A stretch of 64,000 bases of DNA, taken from the NCBI GenBank assembly GCA_046563655.1, contig CM102287.1, forward strand, positions 4,836,001 to 4,900,000, in the 5' to 3' direction. Every line of letters begins with the position of its first letter. Within the stretch, counting starts at the first letter, position 1. This DNA is from Yuukianura sp. NJ FZ-2021. Its lineage: Eukaryota. This document shows, in pieces, positions 1,583 to 32,687 of the stretch. Below the pieces are notes generated by a model. The model worked only from the letters and a program-made list of their open reading frames with translations. It was not told where the DNA came from and did no database searches. Made by a program: the position numbers and the translations under genes.

Positions 1583-4500
1583 ATGTTAGACTGCCATCAG
1601 AATCCTGCCGACGGAGAAGAGATCTTCCGTTTTGACGACGAAGAGAACTTTCTCCCAATTCCGACCATGAAGGGTCTGCACAAGAGCAAGAAGTGCTCGG
1701 GCGACTTGAGCAGCAGGGCGACCATTGGACATGGGCTGAAGGATGCCAATGGTAACCAGGTCAAGGTGTCCATGTTCAACTGCTTTGGCTCTACATTTGA
1801 TATCGATGGGGAAGAGATCTTGAGGATCCGACCACAAAAGAACTTCAGCTTCGACATCATGACGAGTTGTACGTCTGAACCAAAGGCTCGCAGGGTCATC
1901 AACCGTAAGTCAACTTCTGGAATTAACAAATTAATAGATTAGTTATTTTATTAACTTGTAACTGTATAACACTAAAATTACTTATTTCATTACTTGTAAG
2001 AAGACAGCATAGTTGACCTTCGCCTTAATGTTTCTTCCGCCAGGAAGCTAAACTGTAGTCAATTCTTGGTAAATTGCATATTTATCTCAAGCGATTACTC
2101 AAGCACATGACACACATGAATACATTAGCAGCAGTAACAATCGAGGCCTAGGCTAACAAAACAATAGTTCGCATTCACACCACAAATTATCCCCAAAAGT
2201 ACATTCGGAATCCCTAAAATTTCACATCTTTCTACTTAGTATTTGATCAGCTGAAAGTACAAAGGTTGACATTCCCATTTTAAGCATAAACATTTGGACT
2301 TTCAATGTTAACTACTGTTGGTGATGGTACCCTGCTGTTGCTTTGTCACTTTTGGTTCGTTAAGTTATGCCCAAAGTAACCTCATGAAGTAGACGATAAG
2401 TAGGAACCTTCGACGATACCTTAATTGACGAATCTCAATTAATTTTTTGTTGACACCCTAACCAAAATAAACAAAAGACACACTTTACAGTGCACACTTT
2501 TAGTTTTATACTTTGCCTTTTAAGCAGTTAACAGTTAGAGATGAAGCAATTGGTTCAAAATTGCATTCATTCACAAAAGGAAAATTTTTTTACGGCCATA
2601 TCCAATTCTATCTTTGGAATTGAAACCAAACCAAAACATAAACATCTAATTGTTCAATTTTTTGGCACTCGCCTCAATTCCTAATTTCTGCGTCTCTGCA
2701 CCGTCTAACAATGCATTCCCATCTAAAAATAAGACACAACTTAAGTGTCTATTTACAACATTAAATCAACTAGTGGAGCCATTGCACATTGAGAGCGACT
2801 GGCCATGACTCAATTGAGGTCATCGGTCATTCCTCTTCCATGGCCACTTAAGTGCCGTCTTTTCTTCGGGAAGTGTCAGATTTTACAGACTCTGTAATGG
2901 TTCCCTGGAAATGCAGAATTGGCGGGGTTAGATGAACGACCGAGTTAAACGCGAATGAACCGCAGCTTAACCGTTTTTTTACTATGCTCATAAACTAAAA
3001 ATTTCCGACGGGTCGTGTATCTCAGACGAATGACCTCTCAGCTTCCATAAACTTTGACTACAAAAAAAGAAAGCACTTTTTAGTTCTCAGCCGACTCTCG
3101 AAATTTAATGCCTCGTCTTCAAAATTCCGAAACATGCAACTTCTCAGATTTGAAAAGACCTAAATCAGCAAAAAAGCATTCAAATACCATGAAACTGAAG
3201 ATGCATGAAAAGTACGAAAGTACTAAAAATCAAATGATTTGAAAAGTGGTCGGCTGTGGCTATAAATGGTCACCATGTGAATGATTAGCAACGCCTAACC
3301 TCCTGCAGCTCACTCGACTTTATAAATTGCATTGAAATAGAAACCTACTTAGGAAATTCTAACCCACAACAGCCCCAAAGACCCAAATTACGCAACGTAG
3401 AGCATTAACTTTTCTAAAGTTAAAAGTTGAAGGTCATGAGTCAGCATGAAGTTTAGTTCAACTCCTAAATCTAAAGTTAACCGAACCCTGCCTGATGTGT
3501 AAAGCTTGTCCCAAAATTGACCGAATTTGTAAGTCTAAATTTAGTCCTAATCCAAAGTTAAGCCGAATTTCAAGTTTAACTTTGTAAAGTCCGTAGAACC
3601 CGAAACTATTCTATATAATTTGGCTTTCTAAAATGTTAAACGCATCGGCGGCGTATTAAATTAAGCTGTAAAGTCTAAGCTGTTACACTAAATTGCATCC
3701 ATTTTCGACACACTTCCCAATTAAACTTTCTAAACAAAAGGGCCGAGCGTCAGCGCGTGCAAATTTGATGAGGTTTTACGGTTCGTCTAGGATCTAAAAC
3801 CACTTGTTATACTTGTTTCATTGACGTAGCTACACAGAAAATAGAAAATAGATATTGCGGGTTAACTGCCTCCGATGACAATCCAAGGTCACTAGGGGAG
3901 AAACGAGAAAAGAGTTTTAGACAAGGCCGCTGCCCTTTGTGTCTCTCCGTTTGAACAAGCAAGGTCACCACCGTGTTTGTTCAAACGGAGATCGAAAGTT
4001 CCCAATCCCTTACTTTGTTTTCCCATTTTCAATAGTTTAGCATATAAACAAAGAAGTAGAAAACCTAAAAATTCACTGTATTTTAAAATTCAAATAAAAA
4101 ACATGCATCTGTCAATGGCAGGTTGAGAATATGAAAAATTATAAATTTGAGTTAATGAATAGTATAAATCGTCTAAATTTAGCCTCAACAAATAAGTTAT
4201 CCCTGAAACTTTCCCCCTATTTTTAACCTGTTTTTGTGTTTTTCAGGGACAAGGCGTTGTTTTGACCTTTCATCAATGTATCACAGCCTTTCGGGCAGCA
4301 GTGAAGAGGAAGATGAATTCGAGCCTTACAACTATTCTTCATCCTTCGAAGACATGACAATTGAAGGACTTCGGATTCACCTTCGATCCTGTTTCACGTA
4401 ATACCCTATTCACTTAAGCATAATCATTAGCATAATTTTTTACTTCTCCAGTCTGACTCAAACTGGAAAGACTGGATATGGCAAGATTTGAGATTCTAGG

Positions 4501-4907
4501 AAGAATTAGCATCTCATGACTGACTGATTTTTGGTTTTGTTCATTAGATGCGGAGTCCATTGGCATGAGGAACAGGCTTCACTTGACTGTACAGAATGTG
4601 GAGGCTATGCACTCTCTAGACCTTGCCCTGACTGTGATGGAAGATGTCACGCGACCTGGACACGCAACCTTGACCAGGTGACTAACCAAACAGCTTAGCA
4701 CTGACTGAGCTCCTGATCAAGTGATCACTGATGAGCTGAATGATGTGTTACAAATACAATCTTGTGACACATCCACTAAGCCTCATCAGTGCCACGAAAA
4801 CTTAACATTTAGAAAATATTTCTAACTCTTTTCTCATCTCTTTTCAGTCACATACACTTGGCAAGGCAAGATGGACCGGCGAGTGTCAGAGTCTAGACTC
4901 CGCCTAA
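1583..4907 (+). CDS. Pino: Pinocchio-like Cys-rich protein; exons 1583-1904, 4247-4397, 4548-4677, 4848-4907
   Basis: The spliced frame reads ...LRSCFTCGVHWHEEQASLDCTECGGYALSRPCPDCDGRCHATWTRNLDQSHTLGKARWTGEC..., matching the recalled pinocchio CxxC pattern. All introns are GT-AG with consistent phases. Exon 1 (donor C|GTAAGT at 1905, phase 1) joins acceptor 4247 in frame. An alternative start ATG lies at 4276. Confidence 0.8.
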
Positions 4908-5333
4908 ACCTAATCTACTAATCTCAAGATCTAGATTAATCTCAACACTTTTGTTATTCTAAAGAGAATATCAGTAATTATAATGTTAAGTAGGCTCAAA
5001 ATCCCTAAACTCAAGCACACTACTAGAAATTAGTAATGTCATTCCACTAACCTGTCAACTTTTCTCTGCCTCCCAACATCCCAGCGCTCAATATTTTTGC
5101 AATTTTAATTAAACATTTTTATACTTTGCTCAAGAGAGATAATACAACAAGAGATACGACTACTCAGTACTACTTTGTATAACAGTAGAATAACACTTAG
5201 AAAATGTAGGAAAATACGCTCTTTTTCAAGGACCATGATTAGGTTAGAGTCTTTAACTTAACCATTTTTGTAAAAGAGGGACTTAAGGAATGAAGGAAAA
5301 GTTGTGAATATGGAATAAAATGTGTAAGTTATT

Positions 5334-9530: not shown

Positions 9531-10705
9531 AAAGAAAGCACCACCCTCTTCCTCTGTGATTCAAGATTGTCGTTTTACGCTAATCACAGTGTTCGGCAAG
9601 GTCACATAACGTAAACACTCTCTCCTCCGCTTGCTAAATTAAACAAAACCGGGAATGCAATTAGTCGATTAATTAGGAGTGCACTTGGTTGTAACTCCCA
9701 ATTTTAGTTACTAACTTTTCAGTTATAACTGGAAGGTAATTAAATTACACTCTAAAATCAGTGTAAGTCTTCGGGGTTAAGAGGTGTTAATTTAAATAAT
9801 TAATTAGATAAAAGGTTAACGTTAAAATTGTAGAGAACATGAATGAAGTTATAGATGATAGAGATGAAAAATTTGTTGTTATCTTCCCATTTTTTGAATC
9901 TCGAGCCAACAATTCGCAAAGTTTTGACCGACGGCGTACAATGTAAATATCCGATATCGATTAAGCAACCCGCTTCTAGAAGCCAAAAATAGTAATGAGG
10001 GTTAACAAAACTTTGCGCAGCCAATGTAGGTAATTGAAGCGTTAACTAAAAACTGGAATTGATTAGCAATGCAGGTCAACTAACCTTATTAGAAGGAGCC
10101 TCCTTCAAGGAGGGCCTCTCACGCATTGTCAGTACTAACTTGCTGGATGGCTCTCAAGAAGATTGGTCTAGGATGCATTCATCATGGGTGACCATCGGTG
10201 TACCAGAACTTTCTTTAGTCCTTGGAAATTCCAAGGTCGCCGACGAGTAACAGTTGGGTGCATCGCTGGCCGATGTGTCCATTTTTCCAGAATCATTTGA
10301 GTTCGCATGCATCTCTGTGTTTCCCTTTCCAAGGCGGTTTAACTTTCTCGGTCGCTTTCTCCACACACCCATGTCATGTCCCGCAGAGGCAACTAGTAGT
10401 TCCGTCGAGGTAGAATCCGGGAGACGTCGGGTTTTTTTCCGAATACAAATCCCCCTACGAAGTCGAGCACGGTCCATTTGAACATGTCTTGGTCGCTTGC
10501 TGGCTTTCATTTGAACATGAAAGAATAGTAGTAGAAGAGCGTAGCCAAGCGAGGTCTCCGGTTTGTAATCGGATTCCAAAGTTTTCTAAAATGTTTCGAG
10601 GTTTCAATTTCAAAGAGCCAGAGTAGTAAAACTAAAACAACAAACACAACAGTTAATTAGGTTCAACTAATTTGGAATAAGTGGAGATTTTTGATTACTT
10701 TGGAC

Positions 10706-11428
10706 ATGACCCAAATCGTTCTCAAAAGTCTGTCTATCCTGTTAGGAATTTTCTTCATATTCCTTGGGATCCTTAAGATTACTCCCTTCATCAATAAAGA
10801 CCTTCACAAAGACATGGTAAGCAAAAGCGAAAAGCAAGAAAGCAGCAAAACCTTAATAAGCGTTGACCTCTGATTTGACCTCTCCAAATTTCAAAATTTT
10901 CAGAGGAAGGAATTTGTGAAATATGCCAAGATATTTCCACTCGCTCAAACTTTAGGGTTCAAATTACCGTCAAAATGGTACCGCAGAACAATCGGCGGAC
11001 TCGAAATTGTATGCGGAGCCTTACTTGCCTTTGCTCCGAACCGTAAGAAAACCGTATCGGAACATTAAGATTTTCGAAACGAATGATTCTGCCAAGTCAA
11101 AGCTCAATTCGTTGTCAATTTCAGCTCAAGCAAAGCGACTCATGAATGGAATTCTGTTCGTCCTAACGCTTCTCAACGTCTACTCTCATTTACTAGTAGA
11201 TGAAAAGTTTGAACGAACTGCTCCAGCCTTGGTAATCTAAAAATGATCAAAAATTTAGAAAAGTTCAAAAATGTCTTCAAAAAATTAAAAATTTGATGAA
11301 ATGTTGCGCAGGTTTTCTTCTTTATGTTATCCTGTCGCCTAGTCGTGGAATACCAACAAGACAGAAAACTGAGACAAGATGCTCTTCTGGCAAGTAAATC
11401 CAAGGAAAATGGAGAAAAGATCGAGTAA
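10706..11428 (+). CDS. TMEM35A: NACHO / TMEM35 nicotinic acetylcholine receptor chaperone; exons 10706-10816, 10904-11042, 11125-11231, 11312-11428
   Basis: MTQIVLKSLSILLGIFFIFLGILKITPFINKDLHKDM|RKEFVKYAKIFPL...KWYRRTIGGLEIVCG...EKFERTAPAL|VFFFMLSCRLVV is the characteristic NACHO sequence. It ends in a Lys-containing tail. Confidence 0.92.
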
Positions 11429-11746
11429 ACATTCCATCACCGATTACTCACTCCGCCCACTTCTATAAGCAACTTATATTGGAAGCATCAAGCATCGCCC
11501 AGCACCGCAAGCAAAAGCAATTTAGGAATCTTGTTCATGATTTTGATTCGTAGCAAATTGGCAAAAGCTTGTATCCTTTAATTTGATCAATTTTCAACAT
11601 TGCACAACTAAGGGCTGATCAGTTATCAGTTAACTGATCGGCAGTATTTGAAGTAAGGAGTAGCATATAGGACTTACAGTTTAGGTAAATTGGGTATTGG
11701 TGGATCTTACAGGAGTTAGATTGAAGGAATTTGAGGATTTCGGTTT

Positions 11747-12920
11747 TTAAGGATCGTCATGGCCAGTTTTAAGGAGACGAAGGGCTCTTTCTAGGTTCTG
11801 AATGGCAGTCGGTACATCTTCGTGGTCAATGGCAGACACAGCCCACTTGCAATACTTTTGTGCTTTGGTCATCTCCGCAATTGATAGTCTCGCAGGACCT
11901 ACAATCAAGAGCAACGTTTATTATTAAGTTAATCGTAAGTAAATGAATAATGAGTAAAGCATTTGTAAACAAAAACTTTGTACTATACCTTGTGCCGATT
12001 CCATTTGTGAGTACGGATTCACTTGAGGACTGAACCCACCTCCTGGTTGTAACGTAGCGGAAGTTGTAGGTGAAGGCACGGCGGGTCTCGCTTGGGGTAC
12101 AGGCTGAGGCTGTGTAAAATTATCAATATTAGGCCAGTATCCGCCAACTGCACCAGCAGCAGAGCTTCCTGAACTCAAGTTGGAGTGTTGCTGCTGATTC
12201 TGAGGAGGCTGTTGAGTGTTAGATGCTTCGTCTTTGGAATCGGAGTCTTCCTCCTCTCCTTCTTCCGGAAATGGTCCAGGATGCGGCGTTTCCCCATTCT
12301 TCAGGCAACTGTTGATGTACGCTGCCTTCCACTTTGCGTACTTCCTTGTTCCTACAAGGTCCTCAGACAATTCCCCTTTGTTGAAGTTTGTCAGCACATC
12401 AATGAGAATTCCAGCAGTGTAATACGTTTTTATAACGTTCCTGTAAAATATTAACGAAAATTATTAAATTGATATCAACCGACAGTTCAATATGGAAATC
12501 AAAGTCGTGTATGACCCCTCACTTGTTAAATATTCCAGCACGATCCTGTCCGTCAGCCCAGTTGAAAATTCTGAGGGCGTAGTTCTCTATATGTGCTTCC
12601 GCTACGGCTTCGTTGGTTATTGCTTCGTTGTCCTTCATCTCCTTCTTACGTTTCTCCAGCCAGTCCATCAAGGCCAATAGAAACGTTCTTGCTTCTGCTG
12701 AGCTTTTATCGATTGCCAATCCCTGTTGAACTGCATAGAAGCGACCTGCAACACCAAACGTTTGATGAGTTTCATGTCCACTGCAATGCTAAAGTGTAGT
12801 TAAAATTGATTTGAACTTACACCAATAGGCGACGACGGGGTCACGAACATCATGTTCGGAAGCGATCTTGAGACAGTGGTTCAACGTTTTCAGTTGCGGA
12901 GGAAGTACGGGAATGGACAT
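11747..12920 (-). CDS. VTA1: Vacuolar protein sorting-associated protein VTA1 homolog
   Basis: MIT region: MSIPVLPPQLKTLNHCLKIASEHDVRDPVVAYW...ARTFLLALMDWLEK...AHIENYALRIFNWADGQDRAG...RKYAKWKAAYINSCLKNGETPHPGP. VSL domain: AQKYCKWAVSAIDHEDVPTAIQNLERALRLL. Confidence 0.95.
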
Positions 12921-12923
12921 CTT

Positions 12924-13168
12924 GGTTGAGGTAAACTTTAACGACCGTCATTGTAGCCGCACAGTGTAGCCACTCCGCCATTTTTTGTGGCTACAATGGG
13001 TGGCTACACTTTGCGGCAACTTATGTTGCCACTCTAGGTTAGGTTAGGTTAGGTTAAAGTGGCTACTTAAGTTGCCGCTCAGGTGTAGCCACCCATTGTA
13101 GCCACTAAAAATGGCGGAGTGGCTACACTGTGCGGCTACAATGACGGTCGTTAAAGTTTACCTCGACC
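12924..13168. mobile_element. 245-bp foldback MITE with ~110-bp TIRs, 8-bp TSD (GACATCTT) and (AGGTT)4 core; superfamily possibly Merlin, or hAT/P
   Basis: The left end GGTTGAGGTAAACTTTAACGACCGTCATTGTAGCCGCACAGTG... is the near-exact reverse complement of the right end ...CACTGTGCGGCTACAATGACGGTCGTTAAAGTTTACCTCGACC. GACATCTT flanks it at 12916-12923 and 13169-13176. Termini are GG and there are internal TGTAGCCAC/GTGGCTACA subrepeats. Confidence 0.95.
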
Positions 13169-13932
13169 GACATCTTCACGTTCAATTGATTGATTACCAG
13201 CTGATTGGAGCTGAGATGAGAAGAGAAGAAGAGAACACAACTTCAATTAAACTGAAATTAAAACAGAATTTATAGCCAACTGGTACCAAGTTACTACACA
13301 GAATCCCCCACCGAAAAAACTGAGTCACTGATGAATGTTGTGTTGTGTTTGTGACGAAATCAGAAATCATATGATTGCTCAAAAAAAAACTTGAATTTCA
13401 TGAATGTGAAACCCAAATGAAGTTAGAGTTGGACAGTACAGACTTAATTTTTAATTGAAAATCCTGTAAAATGTATCTTACCACCGTACCATTACCGGGT
13501 CTACCTCGAAAACTTCAAAAACTCTCACTTAATTCATAATTTATAAAATTAGCTAGGAAATTAGCAATGATTACTACCTGATTACTTTATACAAGGTTGT
13601 TCATGGAAATAAAATTATTAAAACTGATTATAAAATATGGTTATCCCTAAGTAAAATGAAATGATCTTACTAAATGATTTTTAGTAGTACATTATTGCAC
13701 TTCTGCACTGCTGTCTACTAGATAGATTAACAGAGACAACTGAAAATGCAGTATAGTAAGAAACGATAGTTGAAGAAATTAAGTTAGTAGCATGCAATTA
13801 AGTACGAAAAGTAAGCAGTGACAGCACGTACGCACGTAGGTAGCATTCCAGTTTGTTTTGACATGACTCGTGTAACAGATGGCTTAACTACGCTGACTGG
13901 CTGACAGAGTGAATACTACGATGATTACTTGT

Positions 13933-15333
13933 TCAACGCCTACGCTTACGGCGCTTCGATGCTGAATTGGTGTTAGCTGTACTCTAGTATTTGAAAAGAA
14001 GAGTGTTAAATAAAATCATCATTAAAGTTTTCGAACATTCAGATTCTTGAATTCCTTACCTTGCGCTGTGGACTTTTAGCCTTAACGGGTGAAGGTGTTC
14101 GTGAACTGTCTGTTTTTTTCGGTACCACGACAGAATCATCTCCAGCATTGCCTCTTTTCGTCGCTTGGTTCTGCTGGCTCTTGGTTCTGGCACCAACAAT
14201 TGGTGTAACTTCCATATCCTCCCCAAATCTTTGGCTTTTCTTTCGATCTCTTGCGGACTTCCGAAGCTCAATTACGACTGGAGAAGTCGTAACAACTCCA
14301 ACGGGTTCTTCCTCGTCAGTAGCAGAAGCTTCTTTTTCTTCATCTTCATCCTTTGGTTCGGTTGCTTCATCATCAACTTCGTTATCTCCGTCGTTCTTCG
14401 GTTCATCATCTTTCTTCTCAATTGTTTCATCTTCAGTTTCATCATCATCTCCTTCTCTGCCGTTCTTTGGTTCCTCTTGCTTTTCAATCTCGACACAGTC
14501 GACACTTGCAGTTACTTCGGACGCGACGACTTCCATTTGAGTTTCTTCCACCTCCACTTCAGAGTTAGTGCTTAATTCTAGATTATTACTTGGCTCTTCT
14601 ACAGCAGATTCTTCAAGCTTGTCTTCAGGAACTTCTGAGACAGAGGAAGTATTTTGATCTGGAACTTCTTCCTTACTTTCACTCTGTTCAGCCTCAGCTT
14701 CAGTTCCATTTTGGCTTACAATGGTGGACTCCGTTTTTGGATGCTTCGTATGGAAGTTTTTGAATTGTGGAATGAGTTCACTTATTGGAGCAGTAGGAGT
14801 AGAGAAGTTGAGGAGGGTATTGAAGTGCCCGTACAACTGAGATGCAATCTTGGCGCACTTAACGCAAAATCCAGCTTCCCGGAGTTCATCCCTACTGGCC
14901 TGTTGACGATCAGTCTCTGGCGAAAACACAGATGACAAGGCATCCACCAGATACATCTTGGAACAGTCATCTACTTTATCCTCTTCCTCTTCCTCACAAT
15001 AACCGACCTAACAACAAAAGATAATTAGCCTCACAATCTTATACTTTCCTTATGAAAAAGATTTACCTCGATTTCTGTAATTCGGAGGTTTTGTTTCGTG
15101 AATACTGTGTCACAGTTTACACACTGTAACTGCGGCTTTGACTTCACTGCAGTGACGATTGCATCATCATGTGTCTTGGGTTCTTCAGCTTCTGGTGGCT
15201 TTGATTCTGCTTGTGATTCCGATGGCCCAGCTTTTGGTTTCGAAACGACCGACTCTCCATTTTCGTTTTCATCCGTTATGTTTACTTCCAGCAGCGGCAT
15301 GGAATCTGAAAGCGGCTCCGGTTCACATTCCAT
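13933..15333 (-). CDS. Uncharacterised acidic nuclear protein with a ZAD-like pair of CxxC motifs; exons 15333-15067, 15007-14060, ~13983-13933
   Basis: Long Glu/Asp-rich ORFs join by GT-AG introns. CxxC pairs are LQCVNCDTVF and GFCVKCAKIASQLY. The basic C-terminus is ...SASKRRKRRR* (NLS-like). Confidence 0.7.
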
Positions 15334-15873
15334 AACTGTTGACAGGTGATTAATCGATGATTACTTTTCCTGATTACTTGATTAATTCAGCAGAAATGAG
15401 GAATCAGATCAGATGCCGAAACCGAAAGCACTACTGCACGAACTGGAGAAGAGTACCGAACGAACACTGATGAACTGAAGAAAGAAACAAAAAAAAAAGA
15501 AATTCAATCAAATTATAAATTCAGTGTTTGTGTTTTTTTAGTCTTTTCAAATCAAGTTCCCGCTCTTTGTCTCACGATTCCCCAAAACGTCTGTCTGACG
15601 TTTTCCTTTTTTCTGTGAATTAGACAGTACAGCTATGGGGTACCGTGAGAATTTGCGGGAAAACATTTTGAAAGTGTCAAAATTAATTTTAAAAAATTTC
15701 AAAATTCATTCAAAATCAAATTGAAATTCCAAATTCTCAATTCCAAACTCCTCAATTCTAAAAATTCAATAATTAATATTTTTCAAGTGTTGAACTGATT
15801 GATTAGTGATCAATTCAATCAGGCAAATCAATTAATTTAGCCCGGAAAGTATATTTGTGGATTTGATTAGAAG

Positions 15874-17204
15874 ATGTCATCTGTAATACCTGGTGGTTTC
15901 ACCTCCAACTCCAAGTATGAAAATCTACCGGGAATCGTAAGCTGCTAAAATCTTAATGTTAACTAAACGCTATCAATTACTGTGCAGTTGATTAACGTCC
16001 CTCTTGTTGTTGTAGGCTCACGATCAGCCAGACGTGTACGAGACACCGGACTTGCCAGAATCCGATCAATACGTCGATTTTGGGCGGTATGATGAAGTGA
16101 GTAATCCTTGCATCGAAACTCCATCAATCAGCGTCGAGGCCGCCTTTGAGCGATTCCGTCTACAACGTCTGCATGGGAACGTCAACTTCTTCGACCTCTA
16201 CAAAGGCTACTCCAATGATCCTGTAGTCGAACCACGCAAGGAAACCATAGCCGAGAAGTTGGCTCGACTCAAATTAGAGGTGGCTGAGCTAGCTGAGGAA
16301 ATGGTGGCCAATCCTCCTTCAGATCCGAACCAAATAGATGAATTGCAGGAACTGGAGAAGAAGATGGGGATGCTCATCAAAAGTAGACATCCGAATCCCA
16401 GTGTCCTCCAGGAACGTTTAGCGGGATACGCCAAGAAGCCAGAGTCGGATCCTAATGGTCTTCAGTACGAACTCCATTTGGAGAAGACGTTGAACTTGAG
16501 TTCCGCTGGATCCATTGGACAGAGGGCCACTGAACTGGAGTCTCGCATCCAACGTCTGGAGCACGTATTAGGCCAAAGCAGGGAGAACCTCGTAAGAAAC
16601 CATTATTTATTGTAAACTTATTCAATTATTAATTAACAATCCATTCCAAATTGTAAAATCCTTGTTGTTGTTAGGCTCCTCTTGGCTTCCAATCGAGACA
16701 TAGCAGCGTCCTTGGTGCTTTGACGGTGTTACATAGTAAACTGGGACTACTGGAACCTGCGCACATTGAAATCATCGAGTCACGCCTTGCTTCCGTTCTT
16801 CAAAAGGTGAACAGCATTGTCGAAAAGAAACTGGATGTACAAGAGCTGGAGCGGAACTTGAAGGTGACATTTCCTTCTCAAATTCAGTCAATTGATCCTT
16901 AAATTACCCTTAACTGTACCGTATAACTTAATTAACCAAAACTAATTAATAATCGATTTGTCATTTGCAGTTGTCTTCGCTGTACGACCTTCTGGAGACT
17001 TCTGCAGCTACAATCGAGGCTCTGCCTGAACTGTCTGAGCGATTTGAGGCTCTGAAAGACCTTCATAGCCATGCCGCTGGAGTAATCTCAGAGATCGGAG
17101 CCATCAAGGCTGTCCAGGAAGGAATTGCAGCAGGGACATTGGAAAATGACAAACTGCTGAGGGAACTCAAGGGGACCCTTAGTGTCGTCATAAGTGAAAA
17201 GTGA
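15874..17204 (+). CDS. DCTN2: Dynactin subunit 2 (p50/dynamitin), 4 exons
   Basis: KYENLPGI|AHDQPDVYETPDLPESDQ...ETIAEKLARLKLEVAEL...LESRIQRLEHVLG...LPELSERFEALKDLH are diagnostic dynamitin motifs. Confidence 0.93.
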
Positions 17205-17425
17205 ACTCCCTATTCTCTGTTTCTCATAGGTTAATTAAGTTTCTATGGTTTTAACCTAATTCTCGGAATCTGTCCAGTCCGTAACATTTAAGTTTCTAAC
17301 CTAATGTCTTTTGACAAGTTTTAAAAGTAAAGTAATTCCTCCCTCTGGTGATTATGTTCTAAGAAATGTTTTGACAGGTTAGGATAGGATATAGGATAGG
17401 ATACCCCGGGCTGACCTTGTTGACC

Positions 17426-20400
17426 TCAGGGCTCGTTGGGGACAAGGTAGGAGACTTTCACAGGGTACACGAGCAGGTTCCCTGCATCTAGTGTTAACAG
17501 TTGTTTGGCTCCGGGATTGTACGAAACCATTGATGTTTGCATGAAGGGATTTGTAAATTGGAGGTCAAGTTTGTGCAGCAGTTTCCGACGGTAGAGGTCA
17601 AGGCCAAGTCTGTATCAAAAACAAAAATCGGTGATTTCCTGCTTCTTTTAACTGAAACTTGTGTGCGAGTGAATGTAATTCGCTTACCTGATTTTGCTGT
17701 CCCTCTCCCTCACACTGTCCACTGAAAAATTTTACAATTTTTATTCTGAAAATTTTCTATTTTGAACAGTTTTGTTATTTTTAATTTTCCAACAGATGCG
17801 TATTACCTGCATAGAGGATGCCACAAGTGATCCACATGTCGCCAGCATGGAGATGGCTGATTGTGATGTTCCAGCCATACACAATCTCCAGACGGTTCTC
17901 CTTCACTTCAATCTGAAAACGATTCCAAAACAGGCCAGATTTAAAAACAAAATGCCAATATTGCAGTATTTGCGCAACATTGGTTAATTTTACACGAAAA
18001 AAAAACTATATTAATTTTCTTCCAAAAAACGAATAATCGCTTTCCGTTTCAAAAAGAAAAACGATACTACAACTACGGGGATATACACACGTTAGGTAAA
18101 CTCATAAGTACCATGCAGTGCAGTAATCAGAGTCATAACTGAAGATTCAATTTCACAAAGGTACAAGTAAAATTCTATTAAATTGCAAGTGGAGTTTCAG
18201 TTTCACAAAAGTATAAGTAAAATTTTGGAAAAGTGAAAGAAGAATCTAACTTTGAAATCAAACTCCGTTCATTTGTTGACGTTTAGTGGAAGCCTGGATT
18301 TAATTAGTGGACCAATTCGTGACAGAAAACAAAGGAAGTTGAACTGTTCAAAGAACAGAAGATGCAAAAGGAAAGTGTGGATTGGACTCTTTTGCTTAAA
18401 ATTCCCAATTAAAAGGCTCCTTTGTTGACTTTCAACCTTTCACTTTCATCACTTTCTCTCAGTCCCACTCCAAAGGCAACCAAACCAACGAAGTGAAACG
18501 GCAAGAACTCCAGAATAAGTTCAACTTGTCCTTGAAAGCAAACACAAGATTCTCCAACGTTACAATTTGTATCATGCAGGTCATTTACCCCCTGAGAAGC
18601 AGAGGTCGTTGACCTCTGACCTCCTCACCTTGACGACGATTGTGTTTGTGCTGTCTGGAGTGGTGTAGATGGCCCACAGTCCGTTTTCATCTACTGCCAA
18701 ATCCACTTTGGAGATGGAGGCGACGGGACTTCTGGGGGAGTAGAGTGGGGCTGACGCGTTAGAAGAGTACGGAAGCGAAATTTCTAGGAAATGAAAACAA
18801 ACGAAAAGAAAATGAAAAAGTACTTCAATTCATTTGCTCCTTTTCCACATTGAGGTCAAAGGTCAATTATGTTTACCAGAAACGTTTTTGCGCTGATTCA
18901 GAGAATACTGGATGATTCTAAGGCGGTTCTCACTGTCGGGTTCAGCAGCGACGTAGTAGAAGCTTCCGTTGAAAATAGCATGAAAATTTCCCTGAAAATT
19001 AATCAATTTTTTACAATTCTAAAGAATTAAAAATACATACACAGTCACGCACACATTTGATTTCTAAACTTTCTAATTGCTTTCTCCGCTAAATTTTTCC
19101 ATCGAATCGCTTTCTCTCTCCCAATTTTTTGATCTGAGTGAAAGTGACTTTTTTTGTGCTTCTGCGGTAGAAAGATCTCCACCGTCCCCCGGTTTGTGGA
19201 AACCGATTTCGGAGGCAGTTGGGGTGAAAGTGGTCACTTGAGTCTTTTTTCCATTTGCTGGGATGTGGACTCGTAGTGTCTCCACTGGGAACAAAGTTGT
19301 TTTCCATTCGACCGAAATGGGGAACCCATACAAAGAACTAATAGAATTAAAGACAACAAACTTCCTTTTCCCTCAAGTCCCCCCTATTCTCAGAAGTCTC
19401 CCTCCCCGTTTCCCCGTAAAGGTAAACTACTCAGGTCACTCCTCCCTCTCTCCTCACGTAACTTTATATGACCTCTGACACGATCTGCCACAAGTCGTGA
19501 CTTTTGTGTGTGGACCTAATGGGATTAGAGTTGTCACTCCCTGGACAGGGATAAAGGGATGTAGGATGAGGTCAACTGAATGGCCACGGTGTGTCACTCT
19601 TCCAGGACGAGACAGGGACCCCTGCTGGAAGTTAGGTTTTGGTGGAGATGCGGAAGTGTCAGTGCCATCCTCCCAGTACAATACAAATCACAACCAGACT
19701 CACTTCACAAAACGATCCTCAACCAAAAATCGCTTCCCACTCAAAACCCACTTTCACTATCTCTATCAAGCGCATTTTTCCATTTCCACCAAACACTTCA
19801 AACGACAATGCCAACTTGGAAGTAATTTCGAAATTGGAATCCCAACAGAATCAGTTTCCTCTACCTTAACTATACGCTGAAATTATACTTTTACATAATT
19901 TATTTAACTAAGTAATTAAAATCTTATTCTCTCGTAGTAAGTAAAAAATCTTTCCACATTTCAAAAATAATAATTATTTTTGAATTGCAACAAATTCTTT
20001 GTCACAATTCAATGTCCCCCAAAAATATTTTGTGGAAACAAAAAAGCGCTTCACATCTTAATTAGATCGATTTTTTCCCGACATGCATATGCAAGTAGGA
20101 TGATATGATAATTCATATTTTCTTTCAACCACTCACTTATAATCAAAAATCAAAAAATCAACCTTTCAATTTCAAAGGGAAAGACACGGATTTAAAAAAA
20201 AGAAGAAATTTTTACTCCAAAAAGGCGGAAATTCTGCAGAAATTCCTGTTTTCTGCACTCTTTTTTCCAAATTCAAAATTTTCATGTTTTTTTGGCCTGT
20301 ATTAGAAGGAGTAAATCTTGTAAAAAGAACAAAGCCCTATTCACTTTCTCCATCTCGATGACAGGTAAGAGGTAAGGAAGACATAAGTGGAGAAAGCGGG

Positions 20401-23400
20401 TGAGTGGAGAAAAATGTTTCCGTGGAAACATGATGAAAACAGGGACTAAACAAAAAGTGCTTGACGAATCATCACTCCCAATCAAAATCAATTCTGCTCC
20501 AAATCAGTAGTGTCCTGCTGATTCTCGTCCTAGTCAACTCTTGTACTCTTAACAGAGACTTTGACCTCGTTTGACACAAATCATGGAGAAAGTTGTGGCT
20601 GACGAACAGGCAGTCAACGCTCGACTAGCCGCTCTGTAAGACCCAATCTCCAAATTCAATTTTCCTAATCATTTCAAACATAATCCAACGTACTCTACTA
20701 AAAAACCTAACCTAATCAATTACTCCTCCCTCGTATCTCCATTTCCTTTTTTTCAGCTCAAAACTACAATTTTAAAAATCAAAAAAATCTATTTTTAAAA
20801 TCAAAATTCAATCTCAACTGTGCGGTACTTTTGAAAACTTAACCTAATAACTTTCTCCCAAGCTGAGGATGGAGCTGAACTAACACAATTAGGCAAAATT
20901 AAAACCTTAACCTAATTGACACTTTGATAATTTGCAGAGAAGAGAGGCGGAGGGCCCTTGGCAGCAGATTGATTGACCTGCGATCAATCAAGGCCCCGGG
21001 GGACTTGGCTCTAATCCACGCCCACCTTCACCAAGCAGCTCTCCAGCGAAATGCTGCTCTCCTCCAGGTAATTAACGCCCTTCATTAACACCTAGGGTTA
21101 ACCTATCCAAACTTAAGCTTAAGCCTAACTTAAACCTTAGCCTAAACTAATTGAAGCTTAAGCTTAGCTAACCAATTCCGAATTTGATAGGAAGTGGATT
21201 TGGCCACCGGGAAACTGCATACTCGGACACTTCTGCCGATGCACCACAAAGTGCTGGCCCTTCGGAAGGCCTACATCGACAAGAGGCCATAACAGAATTC
21301 TTGCAGGGAAGCTGCTGTCCCTCGTGACTCATTAAACTGTTCCAGAACGTCCCTTAAGGGTCATTACAGAACAAGCAGCCTTCCAGGAACTCCCGCGTAC
21401 CGGGTATAAACTTTATTGAATTGAAGTTGGGAGAGGCCCCACTCCATTCTTTCATAATTCCTAAGGCCCATTCCAAAGTTTATTAACGCACAAAGTTTCA
21501 TGGACTCTCTGGAAGCAGGCCCTTAACGACTCAGTTTGAGAAGAACATTGTTCCTTAATCTCAGTTTCAACACTAACATTCTGTGCCAGAAACTAACAGT
21601 TTGACCAATTTTTCAAAAAATATGTTTCTCAAATTACCATAAGAAATCATGTTTCTGAAATTAGCCATTTTGCAATTAGAAAGTCGTGAATCACAACTCC
21701 AGCTTTTCGCTCAAAAGTTTTTTGAATTTACTAAAATAAAATTTAAAATTAGTTTTTTCTTACCTGAAAGTGTGGAATGACCGGATTGTGTTCCTTATCC
21801 ACTTGCTCCTTGGTGAAAGTCGTTTTGTTGACATACTCATACAGCACATACGTCCGATCCATGTGCGTTTTAAAGTAGCGTTCAGATTCTGGTGTTTGCG
21901 TCGACGCTTCACGCATCCAACTGCCATTGTGCTTAAACTCCCCATGGAACACAGGCTTCCCCACGGCTGACAAGCCACAACCTAACCAAAACAGAAGATT
22001 TACGTAAGTTCTAAACCTAACTTACTAAAAAGATAGACAAAAGTGAAAGTGTTGTAGATTTATTAGCTTCCACTTCAGCCTCTCTCACCTTCTGTTCTGT
22101 TCCTATCGTCCGGCAGGGAGTAATTCCCTAAACGAGAAACGTCCCAAGCAAACTTATCTGGAAACAGAAACCAAATGACCTTTGACCTTTGACATTTCAA
22201 ATGACCTGGGAATTTTGAATGAACAGAACTTGGCTGTTACCTAAGAGTTGGTAGCCACTTGGAGTGCACAGTCTACTGCTCACTTCTATTCTGGGGGGAC
22301 AACTGGGGCAAGGAGGTGGAGGACGACAGAGTTCCTGTTCTGCTTCCAGATCAGGTTGTGGCTAAAATCAATACAAAAGACAAGTTAATTGGGGTATAAT
22401 AACCATTAGGTTTAATTTATGGAAGTGTTTATGGCTAATTATGGTTTTCACACCTTCCCAAATACTTTTGGAGGCCCGGTTGTGGATTCGAATCCTGGTG
22501 GAGGCGTCGGATGACTTGAAGGCAACTCTGGACAACAACAAAAAACCTTAAAAAACTAAAAACAGCTTCACGCCACGTACAAAAAATTTAAAAATTTTGA
22601 TAGGAAATTTCCTACACCCCTAGCGTTATAAAAGTTGAACGGCAAATATCCATGACATGTTTTCAGTTTTTGGTTTTGATTTTTGAGAAAAATGACTTTT
22701 CAAAAGTTAACTTTTGAAAACTTTAATTAAAATTGATCTTACCGCCAAGAGTGACCTCGCCCTTGACAAGGTCAAAAGTATTTTTGGCAATACAGAAGTA
22801 CAGACCAAGGTCATTTCTGGTGGTATACCTCACCGTTAGAGTCATTTTGACCTGTGTTGAAATGAAACAGGTCAAAGGTCGAATCAAAATACAGAGGTCA
22901 AAGGTCAAATAATTTCAGTATTTTGATAAAATGGTGACCTTGTAGAGGTCATATTCCACAGAGGAAGTGGTATGTTTGGTTTCATTTGAGATTGAAGTGA
23001 TGTACTTTCCCTCCGGCGTCTGCCAGGCAGTGGCTCCTCTGGGGAAAGCTTCCACTTCACACTCCAGCCCAATCGTTCTTCCTAAGATGACGCCAACCTG
23101 ATGCTTACTCACCACAATTCTAGGAGCGACTGTCACAAACATGACCTCAAGGTCATCAAAAGTTCATAAACCAAATTTTGACAAGCGTCGGCCTTACAAT
23201 TTACATGAAGGGCATGAGTTCTAGACGCAGATGGGGTGACGGCATTATCCGCAAAACAAACATAACGCTAAAAATAAAAAAAAAATGAACTTCGTTGCTT
23301 CCAAACTTGATTGAAATAATTTCGCTTTGTAAACTTTTTTTCCCATTTCGAAAAAATTTTTGTTGCGCTATGTTTGGTTTGCTTACCCCCATGTGAATTC

Positions 23401-26400
23401 TGTTGACCTTGGTGAAGTTGAGCAGCGGGTCACCGACATCCGAATCTGAAAAACGCACAAGCCAAAAGTGAGTTGTGATTGGTTAGAAGTTCATGGCGGG
23501 AGGTCAAAGGTCGAATTTTGATTGGTTGGAAGTAGATGCGGTTCAATGGTTCATGGAGCTTGAGGGGAGTAGAATCTTTGTTTATTTTTGTAAAGATGAA
23601 GTGTTCATTTCCTGTGGGACTTAGAGCGTGAGTGCGCGTTCATGTAAAAGTTGTGCTTTGAAGTTTGTTGTAAAAGTGGTGCTGGAGTGCAATGGAGTGG
23701 GTTTCGTAGTTGTATTGATTTTGGACTAATTAATTTAGCCTCCTGTGGGATGAAGCGGGCTAAATGAGGGCCAAGGGCTAAACAAAGGGAGCTAAAAGAG
23801 AAAGTTAATTGGATAGGACCAAAGTGTAAGTGGCTCACATGCAATGAGGCCTTGATGAATCGGCAATCCATCTTCGCGTGCCCAGGTAATCCGAGGCACT
23901 GGAGAGCCAGTGGCACTACAACGCAGTCGCACTGTCTCACCCTCCATCACCACCAGTGGACGCACTCTTGTGTCTGACCCTGAAAAGTCCCTAGGTCAAG
24001 GTCAAAGGTCAATTCAAGGTCAAAGGTCAAGTCTATTTTGAGTCAAATAACCCATAATTGATGGTGGGATGAGAATTGTTGTGTTAAGTGCTCCCGTGTC
24101 CACTCCGCCTCCGACGAATACTGTCGTATTGACTCCGGGAATACCAGGAATGCCATCTCGACCACTCGGGCCAACCGTTCCAGTCAAACCAGTAAAACCT
24201 AACAAAAACCGCAATTAGCACAAAAAGTTACGTTAATTACAATTTTTTTTTCAGAATGTGATCACTGATTACTGACCTCTTTCGCCCTTGTCCCCCTTTG
24301 GCCCACTAGCGCCAGCTTTTCCTAAAATAGAAAAAAATGATGAAAATGTTAGCAATGTTTGTTGAATAAAAGAGAAAGCGTGGGAAATGTGCTGCGTCCA
24401 TTAGGGTCGTCGTGCCTAATTAAAAACGAAGGCGGATGTGAATGACTGCAGCCTCTGCAACAACACTCCTAATGACCTCGCTGACCTCGGCTGATTCAAC
24501 TGCCGCCGGAAAGCAGCAACATAACTTAAACATAACCTAAATAATGTTAGACTAATAGTAGTGTGAAAACGAAGTGAAAGTTCTACCGTCTTTTCCGTTG
24601 GTTCCATCCCTTCCAGCAGGTCCAGGCAGACCCTCCAAACCTTCAAAATACACAAAGAGCATTGAGTACAAAAAGCGGCCATTTAAGAGTCGGACAATAA
24701 AGTGGGCTTACCCGGAATCCCATCTACGCCGTTCCTTCCTGTTAAAACAAAAGTAAATCTTTGCAAAAAGAACTTAAAAAACAAAACGCTCACGTTAAAC
24801 TTCTCACCTGGAACACCGTCCAAACCTAGATAGAGGTCAAATGTCAAGTTATTCCAAAAACTTAAATTTAAATTTGAAAAAAAAGTACTGAAAAAACCAT
24901 GTACCTGGCTCTCCCGGAAGCCTGAAGAAAAATACTTTAAGTATTATTATAATCCAAATATTGCATTCAGATCAGATCTTTCTATAATTCCCTACTTACC
25001 CATCTCTTCCCTCGATTCCTCTCCCTATGTATGGAGTATTCAAAGATTATAATTATTATACATTATAAAATTATAAATTATTAACTTATAAATTATAACA
25101 TTATAAATTATAAATTTATAAATCATAACCTTATAAATTATAAAATTATACATTATAACATTATAAATTATAAAATTATAAATCAAAAATTTTAAATTTT
25201 AAATTATTAATTCTAGTTCGTAAAATTATACTTTTTGGAATTAGTTTTTGAGTTTTGAACTTCATTACCAGGTTCCCCCTTTTGGCCCTTGAAACCATGT
25301 GCTCCGGTAGGCCCCTTCAAAATTAAACTTAATTTCAACTAAACTAAACTAATTAAACTGAATTAAACTTGACCTTTGTAGTTTGAATTTTTTTTTGCAA
25401 AGATACAATTGAACTAACCACTGGTCCTCTAGCTCCGCGATCACCAGGCCCACCCTTGTCACCTCTTTCACCTACGTCAGTAAGCACAAATTAAAATTTA
25501 TCTAAAAACGCTGACCTAACTTGAATGCGACCTTTGACCCCTGGAAGCCCGATATCTCCTTTGCCTACACAAAAACAATCTCAGCTAAACTATGAAAATT
25601 CAAAACAGCACAAATTCTCGGATGGCTGAGAACTGTGGATGGCTTACAGTAATCTTTCGTTTTGGAACAAAAGTCTTGAATGGCCATCACCTGCAACAAA
25701 GCCAATAAAAAATTAACAGAGTTTAAAATTTTCGCAAACAATTTCATGAATACTACAGAAAATAAACTGCAACTTTTTAACTTTTAGTTTTTTAAAAATT
25801 GAAGAAAGTAAACCGGAAGTGGAGAAAGTCTGGATCAGAGATGGTTAAAAATAAAACCTGCTTTCCCCCAACTTCTTCCTCCTAAAACTTTTGGGGCGTT
25901 TTGAATGGCTTGTAACCCCAAAACTACACATTAACTTTTAACACGTTGTTTTTTAACACCCTAAACATAACACCTTATTTAATACCCTAACCTTCTTATA
26001 GCTGTTTCCCCCAAGTCATATTACAATTTCCTGTGAAGTTGCAATGGCTTTTCCTAAAATGTTAAACCCTCCCGGGGAAGTCTGTTCTTAATTTGGACTT
26101 TACTGTGCCCTTGTCAGTGTTTGTTCAATTTGTGATGATGTGAGATTTAGAGACTGGAAGTGCCTCCCTCCCACTGCGTCTTTGTACATGCTTTAAATGA
26201 GTTTTTAGAAGAAACGGAGAGATGCGGTTGGACCTAGGAAGAGACGAACCCACTCCCGTTGTTTTGGTGAAAGAAGATGAGACCACAAGTCCTGCTTAGA
26301 TCCCACTCTTATTAGATTATCACACCCTCACAACGAGCACATGGATCCTGTTGTCTAGCAACCAGCTTCCAAAGGACACAAACCAATGGACACACTACTA

Positions 26401-29116: not shown

Positions 29117-29932
29117 GTCACTTGACCTTTGACCTTGACCTGAACTTTCAAAAATTAGACCTCACCTCCACTTTCTACCATTTTGGTTGAAACTAGAAAT
29201 TTAACACATCTTGTCAACAAGTGTAAGTTGATTGTACTTGAGAAAGTTTGCTTTCACTCACCAGAAGAACAACGAAACGAGCCCGTCTTGAGAGAAGACT
29301 GAGCGTGAAACCCGCTTTGTCCTCGTGATTTTGAGTCTGCTGAAGACGCTGGAAGCGCAAACGCTGAAACGCTGATCTTTAGCAACACTTCAGCCGAACT
29401 TCAGTTTAAATTGATGTTTTAAAGTAGTGTCTCCGTTATCACCGCTCCTCTTCCTCTTGTACTGACTGGACATGTTTCAGCGGATGTAAAGCGTCAGTTA
29501 TCAGTTGACCTCTTTCTGTCTCATTCATGTTTAGCATTTTAGGTTAGTTAGGCTGTCACGGGTTAGGTTAGTTAGGTTTTCCGGAAGTTTTCTTGGAGTC
29601 GCGTAGTCAACAACTGAAGTTTGCGTGGAAGTGGGCCAGTGGGAAGCGACATCGCTGGAATTTAATTTGTGAAGTTATGGTTGCGTAGTTAAGATGACTG
29701 TGTTCACATGATGATGCACTTTACGTCTTTATTCATGAGAGTCTTCTTAATGACATGAAGAATCTCAAAGGGAGCAGTGAAGTGTTGGATAATCCGCCCC
29801 AAGAACACGTTCTGGCGCCCTTTGCGTTTCCAGCATCCACTTTCGTACTTTCACCTCCTCTTTCCGTCTTAAATCCACCAGAAACAAAGCCTCTAAATTG
29901 TCTTCCACAAATAGCCACACATACACACACTA

Positions 29933-30708
29933 CCGTATTTTCGCGTCTATAATACGCGTATTATCTATGAAATTTGAAGGAATTCTGGCGAGAATTTTTT
30001 TTTATTTCGAAATCAAAGAAAATTTTTCACTGTGTAATGATGGTTTAGCTACTAAACCTAAACTAAAACGAGATTATTTTAACTCCAACTCGTCAAATCC
30101 GTCGAAAAAGTCTCCCAACATATTCTAGCATTCATCCTAGAAGACCCGCAATTTGCCTTTAAAGGAGTTGTTCACCGAAAGGTCAAGTGGCTGCAGAAGC
30201 TTGGTTAATTCCTCTGGAATTATCGCAAGCTCAGTGTGGCGCTGAACAACTTCCTTGACCTCTGGGGTCAAATGTGCGGTGCAGACATCATAAACGAGAA
30301 GTGACTCAACTTTTACCGGCTTTTTCAAAAATGCAGATTTCCGTTTATGGAATACATTGGGCATCCAATGTTCCATTATTTCTGCATTTACAACCCCTTT
30401 GGATTTGCACGGACCAAAATGCAAGCAAAAATTTCCTTTGGAATTGTCTTCATTTTAAAAATCACCAGGGTTATCAACTCTTCTATGTCAGTTAAAGTCA
30501 AAAGTATAAAAAAATTAAATTATAAATTAAAAAAATATAAATTAAAAAAATATAAAGTACAATCAAATTTAAAAAAAAAGTTTTCAGAAAAATGAATTAT
30601 ACGTAGATTGGGAAGCTTAAAACGCATTGTTCCCGCCCAAACCCAGTTTTAGTAAATTTTGAGACTGCGTACTATACACGGGAGCGTATTATAGACGCGA
30701 AAATACGG
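29933..30708 (-). mobile_element. Non-autonomous pogo-like (Tc1/mariner superfamily) DNA transposon, 776 bp, with DDE transposase remnant
   Basis: TA|CCGTATTTTCGCGTCTATAATACGC ... GCGTATTATAGACGCGAAAATACGG|TA gives 25-bp perfect TIRs and a TA TSD. The internal ORF 30137-30424 (LLVYDVCTAHLT...LAIIPEELTKLLQPLDLSVNNSFK) is the pogo/CENP-B DDE_1 signature. Confidence 0.93.
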
Positions 30709-30711
30709 TAT

Positions 30712-30820
30712 CATCTTCTTAAAGCTTCAGTAGCATCTTCTTAATGCCTCGGCAGCATCTGAGTAAAGCTTCGCCAGCATTTTCTTGAATCTTCTGCAGC
30801 ATGGCCTTAAACCTTCAGCA
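30712..30820. repeat. Degenerate ~22-bp tandem repeat, ~5 copies
   Basis: CATCTTCTTAAAGCTTCAGTAG / CATCTTCTTAATGCCTCGGCAG / CATCTGAGTAAAGCTTCGCCAG / CATTTTCTTGAATCTTCTGCAG, directly after the pogo TSD. Confidence 0.7.
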
Positions 30821-31496
30821 TTGCTTCGACGGGTTCAATTTTCGGAGGATTTTCAAAAACCCATTTGAAAAAGGAACGACGCCTTTCCAAAAATTATACC
30901 AAACAGTTTTCGTTTTTCGTCCAAAATGGTTTCAAAAAGTTCTTGAGTTGAAGTCGACTTCTGTTGGATTTTTGAACGGTGACAGGAGGATGCTTTCACT
31001 TTGTCTTCGTTTGTGGTGAGACTGGAAATCGGGCGTGAAGCGGAAGTTGTGTCGTCCGTGATGAGGAAATGCATCAATCTACAAGAAAAATAAAGTTTTC
31101 AAAAACGTGTTTTGGAGAAAGTTGCACATCAGAATTGATTTTTTGATTATTCCGAACGTTTCAAACCGGAAATGCGGTCGTTAGTCTCATGTTGAGGAAG
31201 GGACGCATCATTACAGAGAAAAGGGATATGAAAATCCATTGTCCAAATTGACCATCACAAAAGTCCATTTTTCTCTGAAAAACAGCAAAAAACAAACTGA
31301 AAACCAAGCTTTTAGTCTAAATTTTTTAGTGTTTTCAAAAAAAAATGTTTAAAAACTTAGACCTTTTGTTGAAGTGATAATTAGTTCCTCCAAATCCTTC
31401 AAGTTTGTTCCAGAAATAGCAGGGGACTTAAGGGTAGTCCATTGTTTGACCAAGAAAATGCGTCAGTGCTCAATTCGATTGCGAAAGACCCATAAA

Positions 31497-32687
31497 ATGT
31501 CTTTAACTTTTGTTTTCTTCTTGCTCGTGTCCAACGTCCCTTTGACATGGCTCAACCGTACAAACGTGTCAAGGTCACCAAGGGTCAAGCGCCAAACCGA
31601 AGATTTCAACGCCGGAGGCCTTCCGAGTCACCTTCCATCTCCGCCAGAACATCCTGAAAAACCTGCGTCTACAGGGAAGCCTCAGATGCAAGGTCAGATT
31701 GGAGCTCAAGGTCACGGCCACGGTCAGATTCACGGTCAGGGTCCTCCTCTTCATCCACTGTACCACGATGACATGATGGCCTACGAACATGAAGAAATGT
31801 ATCACTATTACAACTACGATCCTTTCTACAACCCTCCCGAAACTCACCACCAATTTCCGAGTACATCCGAAGATCAAAATCAAACGAAATCGGAAGATGC
31901 CGAAAAAGACAAAAAGAAAGAAAAACCAGACGAACCTGCGCCGTTTGGCCTCGACGAAACCATTTTGATTCTTGTTCCACAGTTCAAGTACACAATTCAT
32001 GGATTCCCGGAGTGGGCAGGAGCCAGTGTTCGTCTATCCGTGGCTTTCACAAGTAAGCAAGTAATGTCAGGGTCAAGGGATGAAACTCTTGAAAATCAAA
32101 AACATCCACATTTTAAAATTTAGTGTCGCTTTCTGTTCTTACCGTTTTACCTCTCTCCAGTATTTTTCGACGAGTTGGACTGGACTCCGGATCCTCCACC
32201 CCCTCCAGAACGTCGCCGTCGTTCCTTCTTAGACAGAATTCCGGGTCAAGGTCAAAGTCGTAGCAGACGATCCAAATCAATCCTGTCCCTTCCACCCCCA
32301 GATTCGCTTGTAGGGGGAGAACGAGCCACTTTGATTCCAAAAGTAGAAAAAATCCTGGGTGGAACCGGCGTTGGAGATTCCAGAGCTTGTCTTCTGCGCA
32401 GTGTCTGTGAAGTCCATGCAGAACAGATTGAAAAGACGTACGGATTCTTCGGGGAATTCATGAAACAACTCTTCAGGTAAAAAATCTTATACAAGTACAC
32501 CTAAAATGTCAAAGATTATGTTAATTAACTATTTTAGTTATGAATTAATAAGTTATTCCTGTACAGTGTCAGCCGTTCGCAGTATTCCGAGACTCACTTG
32601 GCCTCGTATCTGGCAGCAGAGCGACAAGGTAGGAGAGGCAACTGTTCTGAATATTTTCAGAAGTGCGAGCACTCACTGTTTCACTAA
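31497..32687 (+). CDS. Secreted DM4/DM12-family protein, 3 exons (start could be 31458)
   Basis: Hydrophobic N-terminus MSLTFVFFLLVS and an RVKR processing site. The C-terminus GDSRACLLRSVCEV...GFFGEFMKQLF|SVS...YLAAERQGRRGNCSEYFQKCEHSLF* follows the DM4/DM12 cysteine pattern. Confidence 0.78.

Follow-up and report, generated by a model that had tools for sequence, protein, structure and literature searches.

The window analysed here is a 64,000-nt stretch of the Yuukianura sp. NJ FZ-2021 assembly GCA_046563655.1 (contig CM102287.1, positions 4,836,001 to 4,900,000 of the forward strand), and all coordinates below are counted from its first letter. On its minus strand it carries VTA1, a conserved gene of the endosomal sorting complexes required for transport (ESCRT), and directly on the start codon of this gene sits a short transposable element flanked by two copies of its target. 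As it stands, this is a clean, very recent insertion of a MITE (miniature inverted-repeat transposable element) right where a conserved gene has its start codon, still segregating with its empty site. The insertion can serve as a marker, and it probably represents a loss-of-function or hypomorphic allele. In that form it is not surprising; it would matter far more if carriers spliced the element out.

VTA1 and the element on its start codon

When six VTA1 orthologues are compared by tblastn, four coding exons emerge, all on the minus strand. The first residues of the orthologues align on the ATG at 12920, so the insertion duplicated the true start codon; judged by this alignment, 12920 is the native start of VTA1. 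The donors of the gene read GGT/GTAAGT, CAA/GTGAGG and AAG/GTATAG, and its acceptors are CAG, CAG and TAG. The best named matches to exon 2 are hemipteran, from Homalodisca (70%) and from Macrosteles and Lygus (65%), with a springtail at 68%; protein matches of this kind place the host among the arthropods, probably the insects. The closest VTA1 in the protein collection (84% identical) is a genomic read-through open reading frame (ORF) of a relative, with the N-terminus MSSGIPVLPPQ compared with MSIPVLPPQ here. An mRNA-derived VTA1 of the same species, sought for its N-terminus, was not found among the predicted proteins. The gene and the parts of the element, including its terminal inverted repeats (TIRs) and target-site duplication (TSD), are laid out as follows, with the 5' and 3' ends of the element named in the orientation of VTA1.

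11750..12745, minus strand: later coding exons of VTA1 (~12745-12523, 12441-11960 and 11895-11750), separated by introns of ~70-80 nt
12821..12920, minus strand: coding exon 1 of VTA1 (MSIPVLPPQ...AYW, phase 1), followed by the donor GGT/GTAAGT at 12820; from tblastn and a splice-site scan
12916..12923, minus strand: downstream TSD copy, with the native VTA1 ATG at 12920-12918 and the proposed acceptor AG at 12922-12921; from the direct repeat and the orthologue alignment
12924..13168, minus strand: foldback MITE, 245 bp, non-coding; from the TIRs, the TSD, the fold and family borders at both ends
12924..12949, minus strand: 3' TIR, reading GTTTACCTCAACC before the TSD, with no AG in its last 14 nt
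13035..13054, plus strand: four TTAGG units in the hairpin loop; from a direct-repeat search
13143..13168, minus strand: 5' TIR, with the donor-like GAG/GTAAAC and the intron G at 13161
13169..13176, minus strand: upstream TSD copy, AAGATGTC, with the duplicated ATG at 13173-13171; from a direct-repeat search

Read along the minus strand, the order is ...AACGTG, AAGATGTC, the 245-bp element, AAGATGTC again and CATTCCC..., the two TSD copies (GACATCTT on the plus strand) forming a perfect direct repeat with 8/8 positions identical. The TIRs measure ~26 nt and the inverted arms 96 nt (94% complementary), and the element is nearly a full palindrome, with halves that are 88.6% identical as reverse complements. 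Folded as RNA it reaches -209.6 kcal/mol, compared with -75.2 +/- 4.6 kcal/mol for shuffled sequences (z = -29.4), and none of 200 shuffles equals it. The longest stop-to-stop frame within the element is 37 codons. Its termini read GGTTGAGG and GGTCGAGG, and a 22-nt terminal motif with GAGGTAAAC matches twice in the 64 kb, once at each end and pointing inward (0.00 matches expected). A first-pass annotation of the window had proposed that the TSD holds the VTA1 ATG and that both TIRs carry a donor motif, and both proposals agree with this anatomy, in which each TSD copy has an ATG on the minus strand.

The arms are built on a unit of 9-11 nt, TGTAGCCRC, which recurs ~9 times in alternating orientation at a 13-nt spacing (12952-13140); these units may be subterminal transposase-binding repeats. 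The TTAGG in the loop is the repeat unit of arthropod telomeres. No further copies of the element were found inside the 64-kb window, where searches returned self-matches and short chance matches only and the TIR pattern picked out this element's own two ends.

The repeated family and the empty site

Five public runs cover the locus, all of them DNA or probable DNA and drawn from two samples and two studies (no RNA run was listed for 11700-13400, which has no bearing on expression), and four of them (X1, X2, X3 and X5) were compared with the window as contigs at 85% likeness. In all four, the bins that cover the element are tens to hundreds-fold deeper than its flanks, which agrees with the earlier view that it belongs to a repeated MITE family. 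Summed contig depth, which is not a copy number, ranges over the four element bins from 30153 to 47021 in X1 (flanks ~170-195), 850 to 1638 in X2 (flanks ~5), 10651 to 24103 in X3 (flanks ~113-566) and 3254 to 5094 in X5 (flanks ~81). The aligned contigs number 620 (X1), 148 (X2), 516 (X3) and 262 (X5). Contigs with unrelated flanks end exactly at 12924 in 16, 9, 13 and 13 cases (X1, X2, X3 and X5, respectively), and nine in X2 end exactly at 13168; because contig ends pile up at these two positions, both are borders of the family. The element belongs to a high-copy family, and we take the depths to say no more than that copies or fragments number roughly a hundred or more. Every feature that defines a MITE is present: it is short and lacks coding capacity, it has TIRs and a TSD with an empty site, and many similar copies exist.

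The family is marked by the 8-bp TSD, the termini GGTYGAGGTAAAC and the subterminal TGTAGCCRC repeats. Its centre is variable, as other copies carry varied internal deletions between the arms, with joints that skip 40-147 nt. Consensus sequences of loose contig ends show variant, sub-family termini, which read GGTTAAGGTAAGGA, GGTCGACGTAAGGA, ...GGTAAGGA and CGACGTAAGGA. Other family members have a flank consensus that, in each of the four runs, closes with AAATTTC beside the element and contains no AG, and the flank after the other end of one variant (loose ends at 13154) reads AGAAATTTC. These flanks may reflect a target preference of palindromic form (GAAATTTC-like) or belong to a nested higher-order repeat, and if they do reflect a target preference the usual TSD of the family lacks an AG; the flank consensus sequences are short, rest on 9-17 contigs and count as weak evidence. 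Exact-pattern scans with two overlapping terminal stretches gave 0 matches in metagenome, genome and viral contig collections. The hAT superfamily was considered and rejected: the TSD length fits, but hAT termini are of the YARNG type, which those of the element do not match. P, Merlin and Mutator-like elements are other superfamilies with TSDs of ~8 bp.

A form of the locus without the element, in which 12923 is joined to 13183 and the 8-mer is present in a single copy, occurs in all four runs, that is, in both samples and both studies. The insertion is therefore young, and it is polymorphic within the sample that most resembles the window (X1, X3 and X5). The first-pass annotation had suspected a recent insertion and named empty-site alleles as a check, so this part of it holds. 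The empty form has a depth of 90.8 in X1 and 131.2 in X3, about half that of the shared left-flank contig (194.7, on a contig stopping at 12923, and 273.4, respectively). The X5 contig that carries it is 20 kb long and departs from the window by 55 mismatched positions and 12 gaps over 1412 nt. In X2, which comes from the other study and carries another organism label, the contig concerned shows 22 differences over 1321 nt. In this second sample the filled form was not seen.

Over 11500-13800 the window-like sample contains at least two haplotypes, the X5 contig being ~3.9% different over the VTA1 gene, and in X1 the window-like left flank is common to the filled and the empty forms. Three haplotypes are probably present. 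Several haplotypes mean that the sample was either pooled or very highly heterozygous; a single heterozygous animal and a pool would fit the data equally. The empty-form contigs also lack 8 nt at 13219, in the pyrimidine tract described below. In the empty form of X1, X3 and X5, the window's six letters beside the TSD (13177-13182) give way to ten others. This ten-for-six change adjoins the ATG on its upstream side and alters the start-codon context; it may be an indel that has nothing to do with the insertion, or a trace left by insertion or repair.

That the assembly misplaced the element here we regard as scarcely credible. Short-read contigs do stop at the border (record 3 of X1 ends at 12923), and none of the public contigs listed bridges the junction. 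However, a perfect 8-bp TSD surrounds exact family termini, the empty form has exactly one 8-mer, and its depth in X1, at about half that of the shared flank, leaves room for a filled allele.

Transcripts that run through the element

The native AUG lies 3 nt from the element, so mRNA from the native promoter must contain the element, and transcripts from that promoter would run through it. Transcription could also start inside the element or just 3' of it, at a new start site supplied by the MITE. The native AUG would then come first, and the element would not matter to the mRNA. We consider this very improbable: with 3 nt between element and native ATG the leader would be derived from the element, and nothing like a promoter was recognised in the 3' arm. 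A clear core promoter was likewise not found upstream, where TATA-like and TCAGT motifs turn up here and there within 13253-13741; the best pairing, TATAAA at 13274 with TCAGT at 13255-13251, was set aside as its two parts, 21 nt apart, are too close to convince. A non-coding first exon of VTA1 and an intron of about 270-370 nt in the 5' untranslated region (UTR) are possible, because a strong acceptor-like tract at 13211 faces donor-like sites at 13481 (GTG/GTAAGA), 13495 and 13577. The pyrimidine tract and CAG acceptors at 13201-13236 had been pointed out before, and are seen at 13211 and 13201.

Farther upstream on the same strand, at 13935-15007, there appears to be another gene, with an acidic serine-rich ORF of 322 codons, a donor-like CAAG/GTAAGG near 14049, and a short last exon with a basic KRRKRRR tail near 13935. 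Less than 700 bp is left for the 3' UTR of that gene and the VTA1 promoter.

The features that bear on a message containing the element are the following, where uORF stands for upstream ORF.

12850..12981, minus strand: second uORF, from the ATG at 12981 (strong context, A at -3, G at +4), out of frame; it overlaps the native ATG and ends 70 nt past it
13123..13173, minus strand: 16-codon uORF, MSVEVNFNDRHCSRTV and a stop, opened by the duplicated ATG; from the ORF list and its translation
13201..13236, minus strand: pyrimidine tract that holds two acceptor-like CAGs, one at 13211 (94% pyrimidine) and one at 13201; from the splice-site scan

If the element stays in the message, the leader would hold the duplicate AUG with its 16-codon uORF, which had been predicted earlier and which translation bears out, three further upstream AUGs (13096, 12981 and 12951) and a hairpin of ~110 bp. 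Under the scanning model such a leader should greatly reduce the translation of VTA1. Our preferred reading, to which we give a probability of about 0.6, is an ordinary recent MITE insertion that weakens its VTA1 allele, with partial cryptic splicing possible. On this reading, a member of a recently active, high-copy foldback MITE family inserted into the 8-bp target AAGATGTC that holds the VTA1 start codon, and the insertion, which is no established intron, is still segregating, with chromosomes that lack the element in the same sample and in the second one. The insertion allele is most likely a translational hypomorph or null, although cryptic splicing that joins the TIR donor at 13161 to the TSD AG at 12921 might rescue some transcripts. 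A segregating allele with a blocked leader needs no rescue to exist. The anatomy, the repeated family and the empty-site polymorphism are observed; the effect on expression, and any splicing, we infer.

The main rival is that the element is a nascent intron. U1 would bind the TIR donor co-transcriptionally, the hairpin would bring the TSD AG close, and 241 nt would be removed; the product would be VTA1 with four additional N-terminal residues, or native VTA1 translated from the second AUG, and the allele would be near-neutral. On this view the family would count among introner-type MITEs, in the class labelled 'carry 5', co-opt 3''. Besides the caution on summed depth given above, several observations count against our preferred reading and favour this one. 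The proposed intron, 13161..12921, has the donor GAG/GTAAAC and the acceptor AAG/, and its removal adds 12 nt and gives MSVE-MSIPVLPPQ, in frame, exactly as had been calculated in the first pass. The donor has six contiguous matches (-2 to +4) to the U1-complementary consensus, as many as the donor of VTA1 intron 1. Donors this good number 86 per 128 kb of strand in the window, so that only ~1.3% of 20-nt element ends would be expected to carry one. When the 5' half of the element is folded alone, as in the nascent RNA, GUAAAC sits unpaired in a small loop. The variant termini described above show that a GTAAG-type motif recurs across family variants. With the U1 match, the rarity, the variant termini and the loop position together, the TIR donor is credible. 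A donor stands at both ends of the element, which would therefore work in either orientation. The rule proposed earlier, that the frame is kept when the G of the AG falls at TSD position 3 or 6, also holds, because 8 + 7 - k must divide by 3, with k as that position. The structural half of an introner is present as well, in a multi-copy family with the TIR and TSD signatures of DNA transposition. As for splice sites, a donor-like site lies in both TIRs and an AG in this TSD, but the acceptor is weak and the flanks of other copies show no AG in their consensus. The mechanism class exists, both in Micromonas (PMC11282704) and as a labelled 'carry 5', co-opt 3'' class (PMC12130899), and fungal introner-like elements are reported to have stable predicted structures (PMC3609843).

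Against the nascent intron stands its acceptor. It reads AAG after a stretch that is 56% pyrimidine, none of the three VTA1 acceptors has an A at -3, and the only nearby branch-like motif of the form YTNAY (TTTAC) is ~12 nt from the AG. A far better natural acceptor lies downstream at 12746 (TTGCAG/G). Once the whole element is transcribed, both splice sites fall in a very stable stem, as judged by the RNA fold, and copies elsewhere lack an AG in their flank consensus. For these reasons taken together we do not find the acceptor credible. In addition, the allele is still polymorphic, which says nothing for its tolerance in the homozygous state, and the insects shown in the supplement of a 2022 survey of introners (Aedes, Anopheles, Drosophila and others) score 0 introners. 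We therefore hold the nascent-intron reading to be unlikely, and we would not expect the predicted 13162/12920 junction to be the main product. That this junction is formed at all is a tentative proposition, with perhaps one chance in three, and that the family as a whole makes introns appears decidedly improbable.

Other splice choices involve the 5'-UTR donor CTG/GTAATC at 13197, or the TIR donor with another acceptor. Joining 13197 to the acceptor at 12921 would remove the element together with the duplicate AUG, whereas with the intron-1 acceptor at 12746 coding exon 1 would be lost from the message and the allele would be null. Both donors match the consensus at 6/9 positions, and the acceptor at 12746 is far stronger than the one at 12921. 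However, the real exon-1 donor at 12820 and the intron definition of short introns (~75 nt) favour retention of exon 1, and we regard these choices as very unlikely, on a par with a transcription start in the element.

If the element were spliced as predicted, an AG-bearing target would turn into an instant in-frame intron, in this case where the conserved ESCRT gene has its start codon. Intron birth would then be comparable allele against allele in one population, and the first step of transposon-driven intron gain would be measurable. The element would be the first of the introner type in an insect-like arthropod, a foldback MITE that is still polymorphic and has a donor in both orientations; we think it improbable that it is.

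Comparison with known systems and other features of the window

Introners are described as multi-copy transposons that are found as introns, many of them with TIRs and TSDs of 3-9 bp (PMC9860276). The 2022 survey in the same source finds them in 175 of 3,325 genomes and notes a strong bias towards aquatic life; most reports concern protists of aquatic habitats, fungi and a small number of animals from the sea. The arthropod entries shown in its supplement are marine metagenome-assembled genomes labelled by nearest reference genus (Lepeophtheirus among the family rows, with Daphnia and Eurytemora in a separate genome list; PMC9860276). In Micromonas, introners take one splice site from the element and the other from the TSD (PMC11282704), and 'carry 5', co-opt 3'' is a labelled introner class of Gozashti et al. 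2022/2025 (PMC12130899, supplement file 7). The element at VTA1 resembles both in being short and non-autonomous, with TIRs and a TSD, multi-copy, with a donor at its terminus and an acceptor that would come from the duplicated target. It differs in that its donor lies 7 nt inside the end and would leave a scar of 15 minus k nt, in that splicing is only predicted and the flanks of other copies lack an AG, and in its host, an arthropod and probably an insect. No report of introners in insects was found in the literature searched, in which one insect-genome paper mentions introners in its references only; on MITEs and splicing, the literature searched yielded plant papers on MITEs in UTRs and none on insects.

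Transposons in exons offer a second comparison. Retrotransposon 412 in Drosophila vermilion is said, going by the title of a 1990 report by Fridell et al., to be spliced via cryptic sites, and maize Ds/Ds1 insertions in exons are reportedly spliced out via cryptic terminal sites. Like these, the insertion at VTA1 is a single mutant allele with an element in the 5' part of the transcript, and cryptic terminal sites could yield a leaky mRNA with partial function; unlike these, which rest on RNA analysis, its splice is predicted.

Fungal introner-like elements, to our knowledge, have no TIR/TSD signature, and they differ further in being defined as spliced introns in genes. They share with the present element a multi-copy nature and a stable predicted secondary structure (PMC3609843). 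Ordinary insect MITEs, for example the hAT-type ones of Bombyx and Rhodnius, are likewise a few hundred bp, non-coding and polymorphic, with an 8-bp TSD and tens to hundreds of copies; the hAT termini listed for them are of the CAGTG type, unlike GGTYGAGGTAAAC here (PMC3845634). Compared with ordinary insect MITEs, the near-complete foldback, the TGTAGCCRC repeats and the TTAGG loop are unusual.

Elsewhere in the window, a second mobile element of ~780 bp lies at 29929-30712, with perfect 27-nt TIRs and apparently TA on both sides, and looks Tc1/mariner-like; a 22-nt tandem array (30712-30820) follows directly after it. An AT-rich 15-nt tandem array with 11 copies occupies 25046-25212 and is at once a 75-nt palindrome. 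An exon of dynactin p50 has only two insect matches, at 30% identity, and an exon of malonyl-CoA decarboxylase is 41-51% identical across animal matches (best 120 of 319).

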